Assembly: GCF_006345805.1 (NCBI RefSeq)
Contig: NC_043008.1
Span: 36,518,001-36,582,000, forward strand
Origin: Octopus sinensis
Taxonomy: Eukaryota
Length of the DNA stretch: 64,000 nt
Direction: 5' to 3'
Positions 6,204 to 57,172 of this stretch are shown here, piece after piece (the stretch's first letter is position 1; every line of letters starts with the position of its first letter). The position numbers and the translations under genes were made by a program. Under the pieces are notes generated by a model. It saw only the letters and a program-made list of their open reading frames with translations, was not told the origin of the DNA and made no database searches.

Positions 6204-6494
6204 TTAACTGGTACATCACACGTATTGAGAAGAGCATTGTCGATGTGAGAACTGTTGCTGCTCATGTATTTTAATTTAATTAACTGGTACATCACACGTA
6301 TTGAGAAGAGCATTGTCCATGTGAGAACTGTTGCTGCTCATATATTTTAATTTAACTTTAAAAAAAAAAAAAAAATGAACGAACTACTGAGTTTGGTTTA
6401 ATGGCCTACCAATATACACTATGAGTTTCTTTGCCCTAGGAGTCGGGAAGACACTCGGCAAGAAATGGAAGAAATTTGAAAGAAGAAAAAAAAA

Positions 6495-6495
<1 letters not shown>
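6204..6495 (+). mobile_element. Two tandem ultra-short Dong 3' ends embedded in (TAA)n
   Basis: 6204-6279 and 6280-6495 both begin TTAACTGGTACATCACACG and match 7952-8160 closely. Confidence 0.9.
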
Positions 6496-6546
<51 letters not shown>

Positions 6547-6554
6547 TGATGATG

Positions 6555-6615
<61 letters not shown>

Positions 6616-6619
6616 TGAT

Positions 6620-8159
6620 AATGTTGACACAAGAGAGCTTGAGCAAGAACAAACATACAAATATTTAGGGATAAATGAAGGCTCTGGTATTCAGCATGCA
6701 AGCATGAAAGAGAAGATCAGGAAGGAATGTTATAGGAGAGTTCGTGCAGTCCTGAAATCTGAACTAAATGCACGTAACAAGGTGTTAGCTATAAATTCCT
6801 TAGCAGTTCCAGTTGTTACTTATAGCTACAATGTGTTGAACTGGAATATGAGTGAAGTAAAGATAATAGATAGGAAAATACGCAAGCTGCTGAGTTGTAA
6901 TAGGATGCACCACCCAAAGGCAGACGTAGATCGCCTTTACCTTCCCAGAGCCCAAGGAGGTCGAGGCCTGATCCAATTTGAACTAGCTTACAAAACAACC
7001 ACAATTGGACTGGCCAAATATCTCGAAATATCGAATGACTGGATGCTAAAGCTCGTGGAAAATCACGAGAGACGAAAGAAGCTTCATTCTATCATAAAGG
7101 AAAGCAAAAATTTGCTATTGATCTCGTGCAGGATACCCAAACTGAACAACCCGAGGGAAGTACGGCAACTATTGTTGCAAAGAAGGTGAAAATGATGGCA
7201 ATGAAAAAAGCGCACGAGCAATTGGCTGATAGGTGGGAGGAGAAACCTCTGCACGGCAAATATGTGACCCGCAGCAAACAAGCTGATGTTGACCAGAAGC
7301 AAACACATCAGTGGCTACGGAGCTCAGGGCTAAAAGCAGAGAGCGAAGGTTTCATCCTGGCTGCTCAAGATCAAAGCCTATTAACCCGGAACTACCAGGC
7401 CAATGTGATGAAAAATGGAGCAGACCCAAAATGCCGATTCTGCAACGACATGATTGAAACAGTGGACCACCTAATCTCTGGATGTAAAGTCTTAGCACCA
7501 GTGGAGTATAAATTAAGACATGACAGAGTTGGCCAATATCTCCACTGGCTAATAAGTCGGCATTACAATATCAAAACTGCCGACAAGTGGTATAATCACC
7601 ACCCTGAGGTGTAACTGAAGGAGAAAATGTAACCATTCTGTGGGACTTTCCAGTACATACAGACCGAACCATCAAGGCCAATAAACCAGATTATTGTTGT
7701 GAAAGACCAAAACAAAAAGTTTGCTTATTGATCGATATGAGCATCCCCTGTGATCATAATATCTCAGCGAAAGAGTTTGACAAGCTCAGAAAATATAAAG
7801 ACCTACTCACTGAATTGAGAAAATGTGGCATCTCAAGGCGGTTACAATACCAGTGATCGTAGGAGCACTAGGAATGATCAAGAAGGGAACCGAAAATTAT
7901 ATGAGAATGATCCCTGGCTTACCATCCCTGCAAGAAGTGCAAAAGATTGTCTTAACTGGTACATCACACGTATTGAGAAGAGCATTGTCGATGTGAGAAC
8001 TGCTCATGTATTTTAATTTAACTTAAAAAAAAAAAAAAATGAACGAACTATTGAGTTTGGTTTAATGGCCTACCAATGTATACTATGAGTTTCTTTACCC
8101 TAGGAGTCGGGAAGACACTCGGCAAGAAATGGAAGCAAATTTGAAAGAAGAGAAAAAAA

Positions 8160-19515: not shown

Positions 19516-20077
19516 AAGGCAGCGAGCTGGCAGAAACCTTAGCAAACCGGGCGAAATGCTTAGCGGTATTTCGTCTGCTGCTACGTTATGAGTTCAAATT
19601 CCGCTGAGGTCGACTTTGCCTTCCATCCTTTCGGGGTCGATTAAATAAATACCAGTTACACACTGGGGTCGATATAATCGACTTAATCCGTTTGTCTGTC
19701 CTTGTTTGTCCTCTGTGTTTAGCCCTTGTGGGTAGTAAAAAATAGGTATTTCGTCTGGTGTTACGTTCTGAGTTCAAATTCCGCTGAGGTCGACTTTGCC
19801 TTCCATCCTTTCGGGGTCGATTAAATAAATACCATTTACACACTGGGGTCGATATAATCGACTTAATCCGTTTGTCTGTCCTTGTTTGTCCTCTGTGTTT
19901 AGCCCCTTGTGGGTAGTAAAGAAATAGGTATTTCGTCTGGTGTTACGTTCTGAGTTCAACTTCCGTTGAGGTCGACTTTGCCTTTCATCCTTTCGGGGTC
20001 AATAAAATAAGTACCAGTTACGCACTGGGGTCGATGTAATCGACTTAATCCCTTTGTCTGCCATTGTTTGTCCCCCT
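19516..20077 (+). mobile_element. SINE-B with triplicated ~180-bp body
   Basis: One head (AAGGCAGCGAGCTGGCAG) followed by three units starting GGTATTTCGTCTG at ~19566, ~19745 and ~19927. Confidence 0.85.
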
Positions 20078-21060: not shown

Positions 21061-21296
21061 TCATATATATATACATGTATATATATATGTATATGTTAGT
21101 GTAATAAGTAGTATGTGTATTATGTAATGTTGTATGTAGTATGTATGTATGTATGTATGTATGTATGTACTACTTACGTATGTAATGTATGTATGTACGT
21201 ATTTATGTAGTGTATATATGTAAATATATATATATTATATATATATATATATAGTATATATATATAATATATATATAATATTATAAATATGAGTAT

Positions 21297-21299
<3 letters not shown>

Positions 21300-21327
<28 letters not shown>

Positions 21328-24300
21328 CTAGTTTCAGCTTATGAGCTGTGGCCATGCTGGGGCACCGCCATTTGGTGTTGCTACTTGGTTTCACTTCATG
21401 GAGGCTTTCTAGCACTGCTATTTGGTGCATGAGAGAGTTCGATGCAGCTGCCCTCATCTGCCCCTCCTGCCGTGAAGTTGGTTCATCTGGGACACCTGAC
21501 AGGAAGAGATCCAGCTTCATTTTAAAGACATCTGTATCCACCCCATGCAGGTCTCTCAGGTTCTTCGGGAGGATATTGAAGAGCTGTGGGCCTCGGAAGC
21601 CCAGGCTATCACAGAATCTTGTCCTACATCTTGATGGCAGGTTTGGAGTCCTAGGCACCACGCAGTGGCGCCCAGTTCTGGCATTTGCGTAACTCTCGAT
21701 GCCAAAGTTCAGGACACTTCCCTCCAGGATCTTCCAGATGTATATTATGGCATATCTTTCCCGCCTACGCTCCAGGGAATATATTTTAATCTCTTGAGTC
21801 TTTCCCAGTAGCTTACATTCTGCATAGAGGCTATCTTCTTTGTGTAGCTTCGTTGGATCGCCTCAAGTTCTGTGATCAACTTGACACTGGATGGTGACCA
21901 TAGCTGAGAGAAATAGTCAAAGTGGCTTAGGACAAGTGTCTTCCAGAGGACCATCATGGTTTCTTGTTCTCTGTTCTAAAGGTTCTAAGAATCCATCCAG
22001 CCAGCCGTCTACATTTCATTGTCAGTTTAGCAACATGTACATGAAAGGTCGCGTCATCACTCATGTGAATACCCAGGTCACGCACTGATTGTGCCTCTGG
22101 GATTGCAATCCCTCCGGGTCCAGTGTATTCCTTGGGTATTGCATTCAGTTTTGCATGCTGATAGTATAAAGCTTGAAACTTTCCAGCATTGAACTGCATG
22201 CTATTCTTTTCAGCCCACTTGTATATTTCGTCAAGCAGGTGCCTAGTGTCTTCAGGGTTCTGTATTGCCTGTGAAACTTTTGTATCATCTGCATAACTTG
22301 TGATCGTGGCTCTCTGCGTGGCTGAGGGCATGTCTGAGAGGGCCATTATGAACAGTAGTGGTCCCAGAACAGTGCCCTGCGGAACACCGCTCACTATTTG
22401 TGTGTTAATGGAGGTGGCCCCATTGGCTACTACCACCTGACTTCTATCCTTCAGAAAGTCATGAAGCCATTCTCCCAGTTTTCCAACTATGTTGAGATCA
22501 CGCAGTTTGTGACATATCATTCCATGATCGACTTTATCAAAGGCCTTTGCAAAGTCGAGATATATCACTTCCACATTTGAGTGGTTGAGCAGCCGTTTCA
22601 GCACCTCATAGTGTTGTAGGAGCTGAGTTAAACAGCTTCTCCCTGGTCGGAAACCATGTTGGGTGTCGGGCAGCAAGTCATTCTCTTCAAGGAAGGTGAT
22701 CAGCTTCCTTCTGACTATTCGTTCCATGACCTTGCTGATGTGTGAGGTCAGAGAGATAGGTCTATAGTTTCTTGGCTTCCGCTCTGCTACCTCCTTTATG
22801 AATGGGGCATATTTTACCTTCCTTCAGTTTTCCTGGAAGTTTGCCAGCTGCAAAGGAAGCTCTGAAAGAGGAACTGCAGTGGTCTTGCTAGGACTCTCTA
22901 CATGCTTTTAGGAGGATTGCCGGGAATCCATCGGGGCCAGTAGCTGAGTCTGTTTTCATTTCATCTATAGCCTTTGTTACATCGTCTTCCTTTATATCGA
23001 TGTAATCTATCGTCGCCGCCTCTGATTTTATATCTGCAGTGGTAAAAAGTCAGTTGGATGGTGATTTGGAGATGCCCAAGGGGTGGAGTGAAAACACTCT
23101 TGAATTGCTCATTCAGTATTTCACTTACCCTCATTGGTTTTCCTGTAAGTGTGCCATCCTTTTCGAGGAGTGGCCCTATTCTACAGTGCACTGTAGCTGT
23201 TTCTGTTTCTTTGGCATACCTGTAGAAAGCTCTGGGGTTAGATTTTATGTTTTCTATAGCCCAGGCTTCTTTGTCTGCTCTTTCTTTTCATGGGAGAGTT
23301 GCAGACATTTTTCGATTTCCAACAGTTTTATTTTTAGGCGGGACTTTTCACTGCTTCAATCTGTTTGTTTAGGCGATTTGAAAATTTCGTACGCCGTCTC
23401 ATTAAGATTTTCCTCTCTCTGGGGATTTTGTTCTTGTGTACAGTGGCCTTTCTCTCTGGGACACATTTGTAGCATATGGCTTGCATTACAGACATGAATT
23501 GTTGAAGTTTCACGTCGATGTCTGGCGAGGAGAGACATTTAGGCCAGTTTTGTTTGAGGATCTCTTTCTCAATTTGTTTCCAGTTTGCCTTATGGTTTCA
23601 AGCTGGAAAGATTTTGAGGGTTTCTTGTAGGCTGCATGTCCGTGCTCTCTTTTGGCCCGTACATGGTCAGCTCTATCATCTTGTGATCCGAGAGTAGTGT
23701 CGGTGTCACTTTCACATTATGGATGAGATCCATGTCATTTGTGAAGCAGAGATCCAGTGTGTTACCTGCCCTGGTTGGTTGGAGTATTACCTGCTCCATG
23801 TACAGGTGTTGATGAGGTTCAGGAGGAGACCTCGCCTGTCCTCGTTCACATCTTGTCATTCCTGGAGAGAAAGGCCCTCGGGCCATCTGACATTGGGCAG
23901 ATTGAAGTCTCCCATAAGAAGCACACCTATGTGTTGTTCTAATGTGGTTAGAATTTCTTCTATTTTTATAAGGCAGTCTTCAAACTTGCCCACATGGCTT
24001 GGGGCATCTGGAGGGCGATATGTAGCACACAAACTACATCAAGTTGCTTAATATGTACAATTAGTGTGTCACACACAGGTTTGAGTATGACAAGAGGACC
24101 TGGGGTGTGAGGTCCTCACGGATGTACATAGCAACACCTCCATGACTCCTTTCTTTCCTGTCGGTCCGTAGTACAGCATACTGTGGTATGTGTAACTCCG
24201 CATCTGCTATGTCCGGTTTCAGGTGCGTTTCTGTAAGTGCTATGCATATGGCTTGATTGCATGCAACAAAGTCTCTCAGGAACGGGATCTTTGTCCTGTT

Positions 24301-24593: not shown

Positions 24594-24743
24594 CGCCAAG
24601 CTAACGTGGCAGTCCAGAGAAATAGGAATGCTGCTGTATGGACACAGATATGTGTCATATAGTTAGCTAGAGGCGATAGCTTCTTGGAGCTAATTAACGT
24701 CAGTATTCGTCCTATTTCTCTGGGCTGCCACGTAAACTTAGCG
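24594..24743 (+). repeat. 150-bp foldback element whose loop is the two-hairpin module of the hammerhead element at 56381-57033
   Basis: Imperfect ~34-bp terminal inverted repeat enclosing GACACAGATATGTGTC and AGTTAGCTAGAGGCGATAGCTTCTTGGAGCT; adjoins (TA)n. Confidence 0.7.
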
Positions 24744-24808
24744 TTAAATATTAATAACTAGTACTACTGCCATGTCTCTCCTTTAGAGAGATTTAGAAAT
24801 GATATTTC

Positions 24809-29499: not shown

Positions 29500-30320
29500 A
29501 TCGGTTGAATAAAGTTAAAACAGTCTGGTTTTCACGTTTTTATTATGATATTTTAACAAAACTCGCTCTTTCATACATAGTCTACTCGTCAGATTTCAAA
29601 TTGAGTTCTTGACATCTTTAGTACCTCTTAGAACACTCCAGCTAGCTGAATTTTTTGAATACCTTTTTGATCAATCTGCTTGCTCTTAAACATCACGGTT
29701 TGTCAGACGTACCGATATTCTGTAACGTGTATATATATTTATCCACATCATTAACTGGTTGTTATATGATTCCTGCTATTTCCGTTCAGAATAAGTTAGA
29801 ACATTTTAATAAATCGTTTTTCTTTCATCTTTCTTCCAGCCTCACTTGTGTCGTGTACTGCGAGGAAAGGAAAAATTAGAAACATTTTCTGACCACATGT
29901 CTCTATATGTTAGCTAAAGGGAATTTGGTGAACATTGGTGTTCCGGATTTGTTGTCTGTGGACTCGTGAGCGTTCCGATAATGCATTCCCTGTCTCTCTT
30001 ATATGTAATTCCTCGCAATTCGGGCATTTAATGCAGTATATCAAATTTTTGCTTTTGCAGTTCATATCTGCATTGGCGAAAATCTGTCCGCTTTTTGTTC
30101 TAATGGATCTACCTGTATGCATGTATTGACACGTTTCACATCTGTTATCATTACATTTGGATACTGTGAATGTGTTATCCCGTTTGTTCATGTTGAATTT
30201 TGCCTTTGTTAATAGTTTCTTTAGGTTGTGTTTTGCGTAAGATAAGCGTTTGATTATTTATTAAAAAAAAGTTTTCACTTTGTTTAAAATTTTCATTTTG
30301 TTTTTCACTTTTTAAAAATA
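29500..30320 (-). mobile_element. Penelope-like element 3' part (GIY-YIG endonuclease), decayed
   Basis: CNDNRCETC..MNCKSKNLIYCIKCPNCEELHIRETGNALSERSRVHRQQI; decayed hammerhead core CTGACGA..GAAA on the minus strand at ~29557-29597. Confidence 0.85.
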
Positions 30321-36462: not shown

Positions 36463-38360
36463 TAATAAAAAGGGTTCAGCAAAGATTTGCTACACCACAC
36501 ACCGAAGTTTAGACGAAAAGCAGCCACAAGTCTTAGCTATTTCTTCTACTTTAAAAAGGGGGTCTCCCGGAGAAACCAAAATACTTGAAGATAATTCACA
36601 CAAGCAGAGAGTAAAGCAACGAACATCAATCAATATCTGGTTATCCATGGACGCGCGTTTCTGAATTAGGTTTTGCATAAAGAATATAAAATTATACTTT
36701 ACTAACCACATTCTGTCTAATACCGTTAGGTGGAAAGATTTGTTCAACCATTCTAGTACCTTCGAATTATTGTGGAGAGCCATGCCGATGAAGAATATCA
36801 TGAATTACATTTTAGTACCGGTTTCAGCCTTTGCGACATGAAAAACAATTAAATTGTGGGAAAATGAAACGAAATGTTTTTAAAAAATATTTCCATAATT
36901 TTCAAATGCAAGGGACATTTTCCTTTTTTCTGTCTGTCGCTGTCTCTTTTTTACTGATATGAGTTCTAGGTAGTAGGCAGCCGGTAGTAGTAGTTTGATA
37001 TGAATTTTTGTTTTTGGTTGTTGTTTTTGTTTGTTTAAGCCGCAATAGTAGTTGAGAAGAAGGCGGTAGCGAAGAAGGAGAAGAAAGAGGAGAAGGAGGA
37101 GGAGGAGGAGAAGAAGAAGAAGAAGAAGAAGAAGATGAGGAAGAGGAAGAAGAAGATAATGAATGATAAAAAATGCGGGAGTGGTATGGCAGCAGTAGGA
37201 TGTGGGTGGAATCCTCTTAAATGGTCACCTGACCTAAAAAATGACCCGTTGTGATTGTAATAGTAGTGACTGGAAGTGTTCTGAATAAATTCATGAGTAG
37301 CGACTGTTCTGAATATATCGTTTTTAATATTTGCTTGTAATAGTGTCATTTGGTGGACGCATTCAAAAGGAGTTTATATTTCGTGATAAAGTACGACTCT
37401 TTACTAATGCGCTGACTGCAGGTTGCATCGTCCCTGAATTGATAGAAGGGAAAAATTCTGAAGCTGGGTTGTTTGTTATTGGCGCAAATGTCGATGTGTT
37501 CGCTGAATGCTATTTTTCTGTATTTCCGAATTTTGATCTGGGAGCTATGCAGAGCTATCCTTTGACGTAAACTTTTTGGTTTAGCCTATGTATTGCTCAC
37601 GTCTCCCAGAACAAGTTAATACATATATTAAGTTCTCCGAAGTACATGTGAAGTTACCTTACACTATAAAACGTTGACCTTGCTTGAAAGAGAACTCTGA
37701 TTCCTCAATTAGGTTGATGCATATACCACAGTTAGGTCTCCCGCATTTTTTACTGACGGCTACAGTGTTGTTGTCGAGCGTATTTCGGCTTGTGTCAGGA
37801 GACTTTCCATAGATTTGGACTGTCTTTTGCTCTTTATGATGGTGTGCGTTTGCAGGATTAAATTTACTCTGTGGTTCATTTTTAGTAGGGGAATGTTTTG
37901 GAGGATGGTGCCGAAGGCTTCATTGATAAGAGGGTTGTGTGTGGAGATGTATGGTAGGGCGTTTGATTGTAAATCCTTATTTAATTTGAGATGCCTGAGT
38001 TTGTGGATGTTGAGTCGCAGGGCACGTTGTAAGCATATAACAATTAGTAATGGTGGGTAGTTCTTGGTGATGAGTGTATCCTTTAGTTCATGTAGTCGTG
38101 TGTTCCTGGTGCTTGTATTAGAAACTATAGTACAGATCTTTTTTGCTAGGTTGAACTCATTGCAGCCCAGACACACTAGAATGAATATCCCTTTCAGCCT
38201 AATTTTATTGTTTTTCAAGCTTTACTCTAAGTTGAAAAAGTCGCAAAGGCTGAAACCGGTACTAAAATGTTCTTCATGATAAAATTATTTTAGCATTTTC
38301 TACCTTGTCTTATTTTCCTTATACATATCAACTTGTGTATTCCTATTCAACCTTCCACAT
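36460..38360 (-). mobile_element. Penelope-like element with GIY-YIG and inverted pLTR pieces
   Basis: FNLAKKICTIVS, YP, LPYISTHNP, KCGRPNCGIC, NLIYVLTC, QYIG on the minus strand; 41-bp inverted repeat at 36797-36837 and 38240-38280 containing hammerhead half GAAACCGGTA. Confidence 0.85.
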
Positions 38361-40559: not shown

Positions 40560-41020
40560 AGCAGTTTTATTATTTGATGAGAACACAGCTTATTTTGCTG
40601 GGTATGATGGAAAGAGTCAGATGTCCACGACCAACAGACTAAGGTGACACTTGCTTTACTGATCATGCTTCAAGAACCTAGTGAAGAATTCTTGCAGTTC
40701 CAAGCAATGCTCATTTTTGTTGGCATTCTCCCTTTACATTTGTACCAATCTTTTTCAGCCACGTTGGTAGTTGAGTGCTGTTACTTCCAAGAGTGTTAAT
40801 TACTTTTGGTACCACGTCTACTCTCCTCCTTGATCACAAAGCTTCGTATTTCCCTCTTCATATCGTCATAGTTGTTCAGTCTTTCTTCTTTCTGTTTGAT
40901 CCTATTGTCACCGGGACATGCTATGTCGATAATCATACATGTTCTTTCGTTTCGATTTTGTTTTTTTACCACGACAATGTCTGGCTTCCAATGTCTGGTC
41001 AGATGACCGCACTGGATTAA
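40560..41020 (-). mobile_element. Dong/R4 3' fragment
   Basis: KPDIVVV..CMIIDIACPGDNRIKQKE; closely similar to 46010-46440. Confidence 0.85.
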
Positions 41021-41684
41021 ATGCCTTAAAACTCCTGGAATACACAATGAGGGACGCCTTTGCAGTAAAAAGTAAAATTTTGAAAGTTTATGAATTTTTT
41101 CAAACCCTCTCTCCACTCTATCAATTTTGACCAATTTTCGCCGCACTATGCACTTAGAAACTATGGGAGAAGCCTCGAAGGTTAAAAAAAAAATTGGAAA
41201 TTCGTGGTCAGCATCACATTCCCTACAAATTTCATTTTCAAACTGCAAATGAAACGTAATTTAAAAGCAATAATAAATTTTTTTAAAAAGTCATTAACAC
41301 CCGCCCCACCACCATAGATCGTAAAATTTCGGCTTTATTTCTAATTTTTCTTTTACTTTTTTTAAATATAGTTTAAAATACGTACAGTCCAAAACATTTA
41401 GTTTTTGTTTATAATTTCAAACTAATTTTCTGACGAAAAAGCGCATGATGTAAAGGAGATTTAGCTGTTGCTTCTAGCACATTCCACAATCATCTGGCGC
41501 CTTCGTCGTTTGTTTGTCACATGCATTGATGTTCTTAAATATATATGTCCCCATAAATACATTTTATTGGAATGACGATGCAGTTGTCCCTTGCTGGGTA
41601 TTAAGAAACAACAAGTAAAAATTTGTAATTTAAATTTTTAATCCTCAGCCCGCTTCAAGCGAGTCCTTGTGTGTGTGTGTGTGT

Positions 41685-55666: not shown

Positions 55667-55895
55667 CGTGACCTGGTGGTTACCGCCCGTTGACAAGGGA
55701 CAAAAATCCTGAAACTAGTCCGAGCGTATCACTCAGGCTTGCGAGGAAGGGATGGCCTCCCTTTGCAAATACTTCAAGGGCACTGAAATGGTGTCTAAAG
55801 CCAGCTGGAGACGACGATCTCCTGGGGCTATATAGCTACAGTAACACCCCCTCCCCTATGTGGTTAGCCATATTAAGATGGCTTCTATACTTTAC

Positions 55896-55897
<2 letters not shown>
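55667..55897 (+). mobile_element. Diverged retrozyme-like element with decayed hammerhead
   Basis: CGCCCG-TTGACAA-GGGA/TCCT-GAAA-CTA-GTC-CGAGCG followed by sequence collinear with 56870-57020; flanked by (TA)n. Confidence 0.7.
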
Positions 55898-55929
<32 letters not shown>

Positions 55930-56380
55930 GTTTATAAATACATGCACAAATATATGCATACGTGTATATTTCGTAAGGTAATTGGGCCGATTACATCTAA
56001 TTTGAATCACGATTACATAAGATAATCAACGATAATATTTCAACTGTTAATAGGAGAGGCAGAATAATTCGAACGTAGTCCATCGAAATTTACAGGAACT
56101 TTATTCCATAATTCCCTTCCTGCGCTTGTGCGTTTTTATTTTTGTTTCAGTGGGCGTGCGGTTCAGTAGAGAGGTCAATGATGTAGTTTTTGAGGAAGTG
56201 TAACATTGAACTTACCAGAAAAAATGTTCATAAAATCGAGATTCATTTATTGGCTTAAAACTTCCTATATATGTATATTTATTTCTGATTAAAGGTGCGG
56301 TGTGTAACTCAGTACATAGGAGTGACACACAAACACACCCACCATATATTTAGATATATATATATATATATATATATATT

Positions 56381-57033
56381 AAACAATGATAAATCTTAGA
56401 GCGAGTTATAAACAGTAGCGGTAACACATCGTGACGCATATTTGCCATTTGAATATGGCTAATCCCTAAGGGTGGATGCTACTGTAGTTTGTAGCCCCAG
56501 GAAGATATCTCCTCCAGCTGGCTATAGACACACTATCTGTGTCCTCTCAGTATTTGTGAAGGGGAGTCATCCTCCCCGTCTTCAATTCATGATACACACG
56601 GACCCGAGTTTCAAGGTGTTTACCTTTCATCAGCATCCACCCTTAGGGGTTAGCCATATTCAAATGGCAAATATGCGTCACGATGTGTTACCGCTACTGT
56701 TTATAACTCGCTCTGAGATTTATCATTGTTTGATTTCACTTTTTCAATATCAGTGTCAATCGACACTGGAAAAAGTATATGTATTTGTGAAGGGAGCTGA
56801 CTTCTCGTCGACAACCATGATTGTCACACGCTGATGAAAGGTAAACACCTTGAAACTCGGGTCCGTGTGTATCATGAGTTGAAGACGGGGAGGATGACTC
56901 CCCTTCACAAATACTGAGAGGACACAGATAGTGTGTCTATAGCCAGCTGGAGGAGATATCTTCCTGGGGCTACAAACTACAGTAGCATCCACCCTTAGGG
57001 GTTAGCCATATTCAAATGGCAAATATGCGTCAC
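56381..57033 (+). mobile_element. Retrozyme-like (hammerhead-containing, non-coding) retroelement: 352-nt permuted unit plus inverted partial copy
   Basis: 50-bp direct repeat 56632-56681/56984-57033 (period 352). 56381-56634 is the reverse complement of 56830-56983 joined to 56632-56731, with 3 mismatches. Flanked by (TA)n. Confidence 0.8.
56825..56869 (+). ncRNA. Canonical type I hammerhead ribozyme
   Basis: Stem I CACACG/CGUGUG, CUGAUGA, stem II AAGGU-AAAC-ACCUU, GAAA, short near-palindromic stem III ACUCGGGU, GUC cleavage triplet (56861-56863). Confidence 0.9.
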
Positions 57034-57042
57034 TATATATAT

Positions 57043-57172
57043 ATTCCTTTCTATCAAAGAGCGTAGGCTCGAAAGGTAACATACTTTTCCATTTTTCCCG
57101 AGCGTCAAACTAATACACTTGCTTGTTGTTCCTACACCTGTCTTCGTCTTTGTTTTTCTATAAATTTGAACT
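57043..57172 (+). mobile_element. Probable Penelope pLTR remnant with decayed hammerhead
   Basis: TCAAAGA with stem GAGC-GTAG-GCTC then GAAAGGTA; between (TA)n tracts. Confidence 0.4.

Follow-up and report, generated by a model that had tools for sequence, protein, structure and literature searches.

A two-armed insertion of a 352-nt element, probably of the non-LTR retrozyme type, in the Octopus sinensis genome, from a family with a predicted snRNA-type promoter and targeted by a LINE at the predicted start site

A 64,000-nucleotide stretch of the Octopus sinensis genome (assembly GCF_006345805.1, contig NC_043008.1, positions 36,518,001 to 36,582,000; hereafter the window) carries a 352-nt unit in a sense and an adjacent inverted copy. 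What kind of element is it, how would it be transcribed, and what moves it? A first-pass annotation had described it as a viroid-like hammerhead RNA element of a candidate retrozyme family. In our assessment the locus is probably a two-armed insertion of a non-LTR retrozyme-type element moved by Penelope-type enzymes. Its features are listed in Table 1.

Table 1. Features of the insertion and of a neighboring sibling copy (positions in the window)
Feature	Position	Strand	Description
Left flank	56344..56380		(TA)n
Inverted 5'-truncated arm	56381..56634 (outer edge 56378/81)	-	Unit 199-352, then 1-99/103; finishes at the "long" fixed 3' end
Hammerhead core of the inverted arm	56601..56633	-	5' strand of its own stem I lost at the junction
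Sense arm	56632..57036	+	Complete 352-nt unit (56632-56983), followed by unit positions 1-50/53; finishes at the "short" fixed 3' end
Predicted snRNA-type promoter	56745..56793	+	11 nt identical to the U1 upstream element (56745-56755); a further block matches at about -30 to -15
Long imperfect rod continuing stem I	56781..56914	+	Sibling family retains the rod with changed pairs
Empty LINE target site	56805..56824	+	Duplicated in LINE-bearing copies; includes the predicted start (~56807)
Type I hammerhead	56825..56869	+	Stem I 56825-30/56864-69; core 56831-37; stem II 56838-51; GAAA 56852-55; palindromic stem III 56855-62; predicted cleavage after 56863
Right flank	57034..57044		(TA)n
Sibling 357-nt retrozyme family, 5'-truncated copy	55668..55897	+	U3-A8 core, 6-nt palindromic stem III, ends in (TA)n; separate insertion

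Alignment of the two arms bore out the layout first proposed for the locus. The sense arm reads A-B-C-A' with a period of 352 nt (56632-56684 and 56984-57036 are 98% identical), and the adjacent inverted arm differs from it at 4 of 257 nt, overlapping it by 3 nt at the junction. The C-to-A junction, which had been taken from the inverted copy as a sign of a circular or multimeric template, is real and is already present in the sense arm; circular and linear multimeric templates would leave the same junction. The outer ends of both arms pass into (TA)n. The unit has a GC content of about 44% (from base totals) and, as claimed earlier, no credible ORF, the longest ATG ORF on the 352-nt circle being 56 aa. 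It therefore falls within the size and composition range of metazoan non-LTR retrozymes (150-450 bp, GC below 50%, no ORF). The locus has one hammerhead per strand, whereas a 2026 preprint (bioRxiv 10.64898/2026.07.22.740005) calls copies with two consecutive same-strand hammerheads "active", a term that concerns the locus copy and not the family. This locus alone cannot yield a unit-length circle: its promoter match is followed by a single ribozyme on that strand, and the insertion is therefore likely to be a dead end. An ADAR editing footprint at the arms was considered and rejected. All four differences between the arms are G-to-A changes on the inverted side, and substitutions at 26 of 30 loci (4 duplicates dropped) gave no clear editing signal (A>G 35 at 19 sites vs. 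T>C 24 at 19 sites; G>A 71, C>T 55), in a set of copies picked for closeness to the query and thus biased against edited ones.

The hammerhead core sequence CTGATGA begins at 56831, and this core and the seven helices and hairpins named in the first-pass annotation were all found in place. The core, three stems and covariation are those of a type I hammerhead on a sequence basis. Rfam models, which had been suggested as a check, matched no hammerhead family in the unit. In circular mode the unit folded at −128.6 kcal/mol, far more stable than 150 dinucleotide shuffles (−86.8 ± 6.0; z ~ −7). The term "viroid-like" holds for the structural likeness; it does not hold for polarity, since a motif scan located the hammerhead only on the unit's sense strand and hammerhead viroids carry ribozymes on both. 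Pair 10.1-11.1 is A-U in this copy. Stem III has 2 bp in the monomer, yet it is an 8-nt palindrome. The predicted active monomer fold (−7.4) is weaker than the best fold (−13.7), and two copies co-fold into a dimeric hammerhead at −30.9; cleavage is accordingly predicted by the folding model to need a dimer. A dimeric hammerhead formed through a short palindromic stem III has been described (PMC4209133), and its arrangement matches the co-fold of the unit.

Variation across subfamilies was examined in 78 distinct core strings, a set that includes about ten spurious regex matches and in which relatedness inflates the counts. Stem II was substituted on both sides, with pairs 2-4 kept in 70-71 of the 78 strings as G-C and A-U forms, and core positions 3-8 were C-G in 39 and U-A in 21. 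Stem III varied in both sequence and length, with at least seven sequence forms, and was palindromic throughout. Because the stem II changes are compensatory and the palindrome is retained in stem III, the pattern across subfamilies indicates selection on a dimeric ribozyme fold.

A genome search with the unit returned 2,452 candidates, of which the best 40, when scored, were 97-100% identical over the unit. The ribozyme core had 149 exact pattern matches and a 26-mer close to the 3' end had 1,382, against 0 for the reversed controls. With over a thousand copies, the unit is far from single-copy, and its earlier description as young and multicopy agrees with these identities and counts. The family is a young, multicopy, non-coding repeat.

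The ends of its copies were read in 49 non-duplicate loci, a non-random set made up of 30 top matches and 30 pattern matches minus 11 duplicates. Nearly all 3' ends (76/78) fell at two sites, 37 at unit positions 45-59 and 39 at 94-103, with 2 elsewhere. The two fixed ends lie 43-46 nt apart, and 61 of the 78 ends continued into TA-like sequence. Two-armed, head-to-head loci combined one short and one long arm in 26 of 27 cases; short+short and long+long pairs each numbered 0. The 22 single-armed loci were divided equally (11 short, 11 long). The 5' ends were variable, reflecting 5' truncation. Two consecutive same-strand hammerheads were present in 6/49 loci, one locus (L057) held a near-trimer, and in tandem copies the unit closed on itself at 352-353 nt. 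The loci seen were dispersed insertions of 1-3 units with no long arrays, and no LTR-like pairs were seen in the ends inspected. At locus L314, a 2.5-kb interval between copies contained no ORF of 120 aa.

Copies of the unit share the insertion features of Penelope-type elements, namely 5' truncation, an inverted arm, a tail at one end and a microsatellite target. The Penelope-like footprint has been described as an inverted truncated copy, a 30-40-bp tail at one end and a microsatellite bias (PMC8557442). Protein searches of the genome identified four Penelope-like coding families, the best-scoring ones only, which were 46-67% mutually identical and had open frames of ~775-784 aa in three. 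The three families with readable ends terminated in (TA)n and had two 3' ends 32-38 nt apart, against 43-46 nt in the unit, and two of them showed short+long inverted pairs (loci read: L053, L253 and L257). The (TA)n flanks, two fixed 3' ends and inverted arm are thus as in the genome's own Penelope families, in line with the Penelope-type mobilization that had been suggested for the locus. Going by the insertion footprint alone, the mobilizer is likely a Penelope-type enzyme acting in trans. Four Penelope-like proteins (P0233, P0277, P0279 and P0282) were labelled as bivalve bacterial symbionts; these are probably host DNA in those assemblies.

The upstream part of the unit was compared with the snRNA genes of this genome. 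ATCAGT was found at −57 to −61 in 12/12 U2 loci and at −57 to −59 in 12/12 U1 loci, the latter forming one cluster. The unit has ATCAGT at −58 from the predicted start at 56807, and ATCAG occurred at −58/−59 in all 11 sibling hosts read; ATCAGT was absent by eye from 12/12 U6 loci. The unit has a match to the U1/U2 proximal element near −60. The best local alignment anywhere between U1 upstream sequence and the unit was in register and covered unit 114-162, beginning with 11 identical bases. Taken by itself this is a modest match: its score was reached by 6-31 of 1,000 shuffles across the four U1 upstreams tested, leaving the positional match uncounted, and part of the U1 match lies within the rod. 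For fam1, the start is anchored by homology and the LINE junction lies 2 nt upstream of it. Transcription is predicted to start at ~56807 (unit ~176). The promoter match stood ahead of two tandem ribozymes in just 2/49 loci, the window locus not being one, so that few loci would be sources.

The predicted start lies within the target site of a LINE. At locus L115, two ribozymes 5,673 nt apart enclose a LINE flanked by a duplication of unit 174-193; this locus had been a candidate for an autonomous Penelope form and was rejected, as the interval holds the LINE and no Penelope ORF. Pfam domains of the LINE were zf-CCHC (E 1.4e-4) in ORF1 and Exo_endo_phos (APE), RVT_1 and zf-RVT in ORF2. The nearest named homologue, at 53%, was from Argonauta hians, as would fit an octopod host. 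We take the LINE to be L1/Tx1-like, the Tx1 label coming from its domain layout and behavior, with no labelled references among the homologues. Among the closest LINE 3' ends, 18/19 joined unit position 174. Genome-wide, the junction pattern gave 77 rows, or 59 places by hand count, with 54 at the retrozyme-type site (some of these resting on a 25-nt read alone) and 5 elsewhere, 4 of the 5 from one LINE subfamily. The 54 junctions, diverged subfamilies included, lie at the predicted start or 2 nt before it, a share well above the criterion for target specificity in PMC4494074, by which over 20% of a LINE's flanks fall in a single repeat. When 20 junctions were read further, a relative with a hammerhead followed in 16, the start of another LINE in 3 and unrelated DNA in 1. 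Target duplications were 13-20 bp and also flanked 5'-truncated copies.

The upstream side was read in 20 more LINE loci. Sixteen had a sense host, two followed a second LINE (81% identical and stopping at the same retrozyme site), one was complex and one (L263) had an inverted host arm. For five LINE copies, another 10 kb of upstream sequence contained no host, possibly because the composite moved whole or because of a later deletion. LINE variants did not track host subfamilies, with 1/15 inner branches well supported in a LINE tree that excluded L164 and the duplicates L153, L159 and L160. A second, diverged LINE family starts or ends at the retrozyme site in L259:900-1230, L268:860-1260, L186 and L187, producing head-to-tail LINE stacks. 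At L263:5250-6671, the inverted retrozyme arm is joined straight to a 5'-truncated LINE, a candidate case in which Penelope-type copying took a LINE along. Another subfamily of the LINE was found in a different clustered repeat (L166, L167, L138-L146 and L192; C28 ~4.3-5.5 Mb), and in 14 loci the target of this subfamily had no tRNA or Rfam match.

Related and unrelated repeats were also observed. The sibling 357-nt family had 1,890 candidates in the genome and is likewise a LINE target. The LINE also hits a distant retrozyme subfamily at L177 and L178, in which the core reads CCGAUGA and the stem III palindrome is 10 nt long. Within the window, two (TA)n tracts enclose a sequence at 24595-24790 (+) that is related to the 3' hairpins of the unit but older and diverged (83% over 54 nt). 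A decayed Penelope-like element with a hammerhead remnant and a short inverted arm lies at 36800-38290 (−); its intact relatives have a 784-aa ORF and an upstream 437-aa ORF (L051; 4,366-nt unit). At 29520-30230 (−) is the 3' remnant of a second Penelope-like family, with intact 775-aa relatives and a ~4,270-nt unit (L253-L257). Pieces of other non-LTR retrotransposons lie at 6440-7614 (+), 21281-23979 (−) and 40796-41260 (−), and 19565-20073 contains 2.8 copies of a 180-nt unit, apparently a tandem SINE-like repeat. Locus L228, considered as a Penelope-retrozyme chimera, proved to be separate insertions with a microsatellite between them.

Several other explanations were weighed. The unit could be the pseudo-LTR of an unsampled coding Penelope-like element and its copies the truncated ends. 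The insertion footprint would be the same, the Penelope families sampled were the best-scoring ones, with a stricter first look in one search, and in Xenopus there is a relationship between retrozymes and pseudo-LTRs (bioRxiv 10.64898/2026.07.22.740005). Against this, the unit closes on itself in its tandems, and no terminal sequence common to the unit and the four coding families was found. An ORF with RT and GIY-YIG contiguous with the unit within 1.5 kb was seen in 0/85 loci, Penelope protein matches occurring in 2/85, both ~1 kb away and non-contiguous; the sole long interval between ribozymes (L115) held the LINE and not a Penelope ORF. No copy looked at was thus the terminal repeat of a coding Penelope, the case in which the first-pass annotation would have called the unit an ordinary pLTR. 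Judged from the elements sampled, we consider a pseudo-LTR quite improbable. Even less credible is the idea that autonomy lies with the LINE-bearing composite and that LINE proteins mobilize the small unit. L115 does look like ORFs between two ribozyme repeats, and the LINE copies with no upstream host, together with the L263 arm, suggest that composites may sometimes move whole. The LINE, however, has a 3' end of its own and makes target duplications, which 5'-truncated copies within hosts show as well (L164, L269 and L277), it also occupies non-retrozyme sites (5/59), and its variants do not follow host subfamilies, in a mostly unresolved tree. The ends of the small unit are Penelope-like, not LINE-like.

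Two further alternatives concern the RNA. The template may have been a linear read-through multimer, with the hammerhead cutting little or not at all and circles uninvolved. The junctions cannot separate a circle from a multimer, the best monomer fold is not the active one, and minimal hammerheads of the Penelope type cleave weakly in vitro (PMC4209133). The compensatory changes and the kept palindrome, however, favor selection on cleavage, and many arms exceed one unit even though a promoter before two ribozymes is rare. Other animal retrozymes also yield abundant circles (PMC7229834), and on balance we regard the linear template as unlikely. An endogenized infectious viroid-like RNA with RNA-to-RNA replication would account for the size, rod and hammerhead, but it fits poorly with a one-polarity ribozyme, a host-type promoter match and over a thousand DNA copies. 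The ribozyme core also had 0 exact matches in viral and metagenome contigs in a search for exact matches only, and we give this explanation almost no credence.

The element resembles several known systems, with some differences. Metazoan non-LTR retrozymes (coral, Mytilus at 350-390 bp, axolotl) are likewise small and non-coding, with type I hammerheads, low GC and tandems; the axolotl retrozyme has a short palindromic stem III like that of the unit, and Penelope-like elements are proposed as mobilizers (PMC7229834; bioRxiv 10.64898/2026.07.22.740005). Unlike them, the unit occurs in dispersed two-armed (TA)n insertions, extends stem I into a 50-bp rod and is a LINE target, and it has a U1/U2-like promoter match whereas metazoan retrozymes are seemingly without promoters (PMC7761336). 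One of nine retrozyme dimers cleaved in vitro in the 2026 preprint and eight did not. Penelope pseudo-LTRs with hammerheads share with the unit family the inverted 5'-truncated arm, partial tandems, one-end tail, (TA)n preference, palindromic stem III and U3-A8 core variant (PMC4209133; PMC8557442). The unit differs from these in having no RT/GIY-YIG ORF, a tail of 43-46 nt in place of 30-40, and no sequence in common with the four families sampled. Newt satellite 2, a hammerhead repeat with dimer-dependent cleavage, is reportedly transcribed from an internal promoter of the snRNA Pol II type (Coats et al. 1994, cited in PMC2220036), features that are predicted for the unit; the newt promoter was tested, whereas that of the unit is a sequence match, and the newt repeats are satellite arrays (PMC2220036; PMC7229834).

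Targeting of other repeats is known for several Tx1-clade elements (PMC4494074, PMC1919474), among them Tx1L in Tx1D, Keno in U2 genes, Tx1-Mar in Mariner-N4 and Tx1-8_Crp in LTR elements (PMC4494074). The LINE described here resembles these target-specific Tx1 LINEs in its CCHC ORF1, its APE-RT-zinc-finger ORF2 and its use of one site in another repeat, and differs in that its target is the predicted start site of a hammerhead retrozyme, in diverged target sequences. The open-access literature searched, Repbase not included, showed no cephalopod retrozyme, no LINE targeting a retrozyme, and no report of a Tx1 LINE linked with a retrozyme or hammerhead. The main texts of PMC7229834 and the 2026 preprint, as searched, do not mention cephalopods, and their supplements may list cephalopod retrozymes. 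On present sequence comparisons, the promoter match, strict arm rule and start-site LINE set the unit apart from known retrozymes. The first-pass reading was right in kind; missing from it were the predicted dimer requirement, the match to a U1-type promoter, the unit-targeting LINE and the inability of this locus to give a unit-length circle.

For the retrozyme-type element we propose the following course. A source locus with a promoter and two same-strand ribozymes would give a Pol II transcript from about unit position 176, in which the two ribozymes would pair via the palindromic stem III and cut, freeing a 352-nt monomer that a host ligase could close into a circle. A Penelope endonuclease would cut (TA)n with a stagger, and reverse transcription would be primed from each of the two DNA ends. 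From the short+long arm rule we infer that this two-end priming takes place at two fixed RNA sites, ~45 nt apart, which would produce head-to-head arms able to exceed one unit. The L1/Tx1-like LINE would insert at the predicted start site and may be transcribed from the promoter of its host. More tentatively, and with somewhat less than even confidence, we suggest a three-tier system made up of a retrozyme with a U1-type promoter and RNA circles, Penelope copying, and promoter-finding LINEs that are sometimes passengers. The LINE families would then locate the retrozyme by its promoter, by position and not by sequence, and land on the start site.

The transcription of animal retrozymes and the enzyme that moves them are presented as open questions in PMC7229834, PMC7761336 and the 2026 preprint. 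The strict arm rule, the predicted start and promoter, and the predicted dimer-dependent cut provide sharp tests of this family. The near-absolute short+long rule constrains the Penelope integration mechanism, which is still unreconstituted, and the constant position of the LINE in diverged targets makes it possible to ask whether its insertion sites are chosen by snRNA transcription factors and not by the endonuclease alone.
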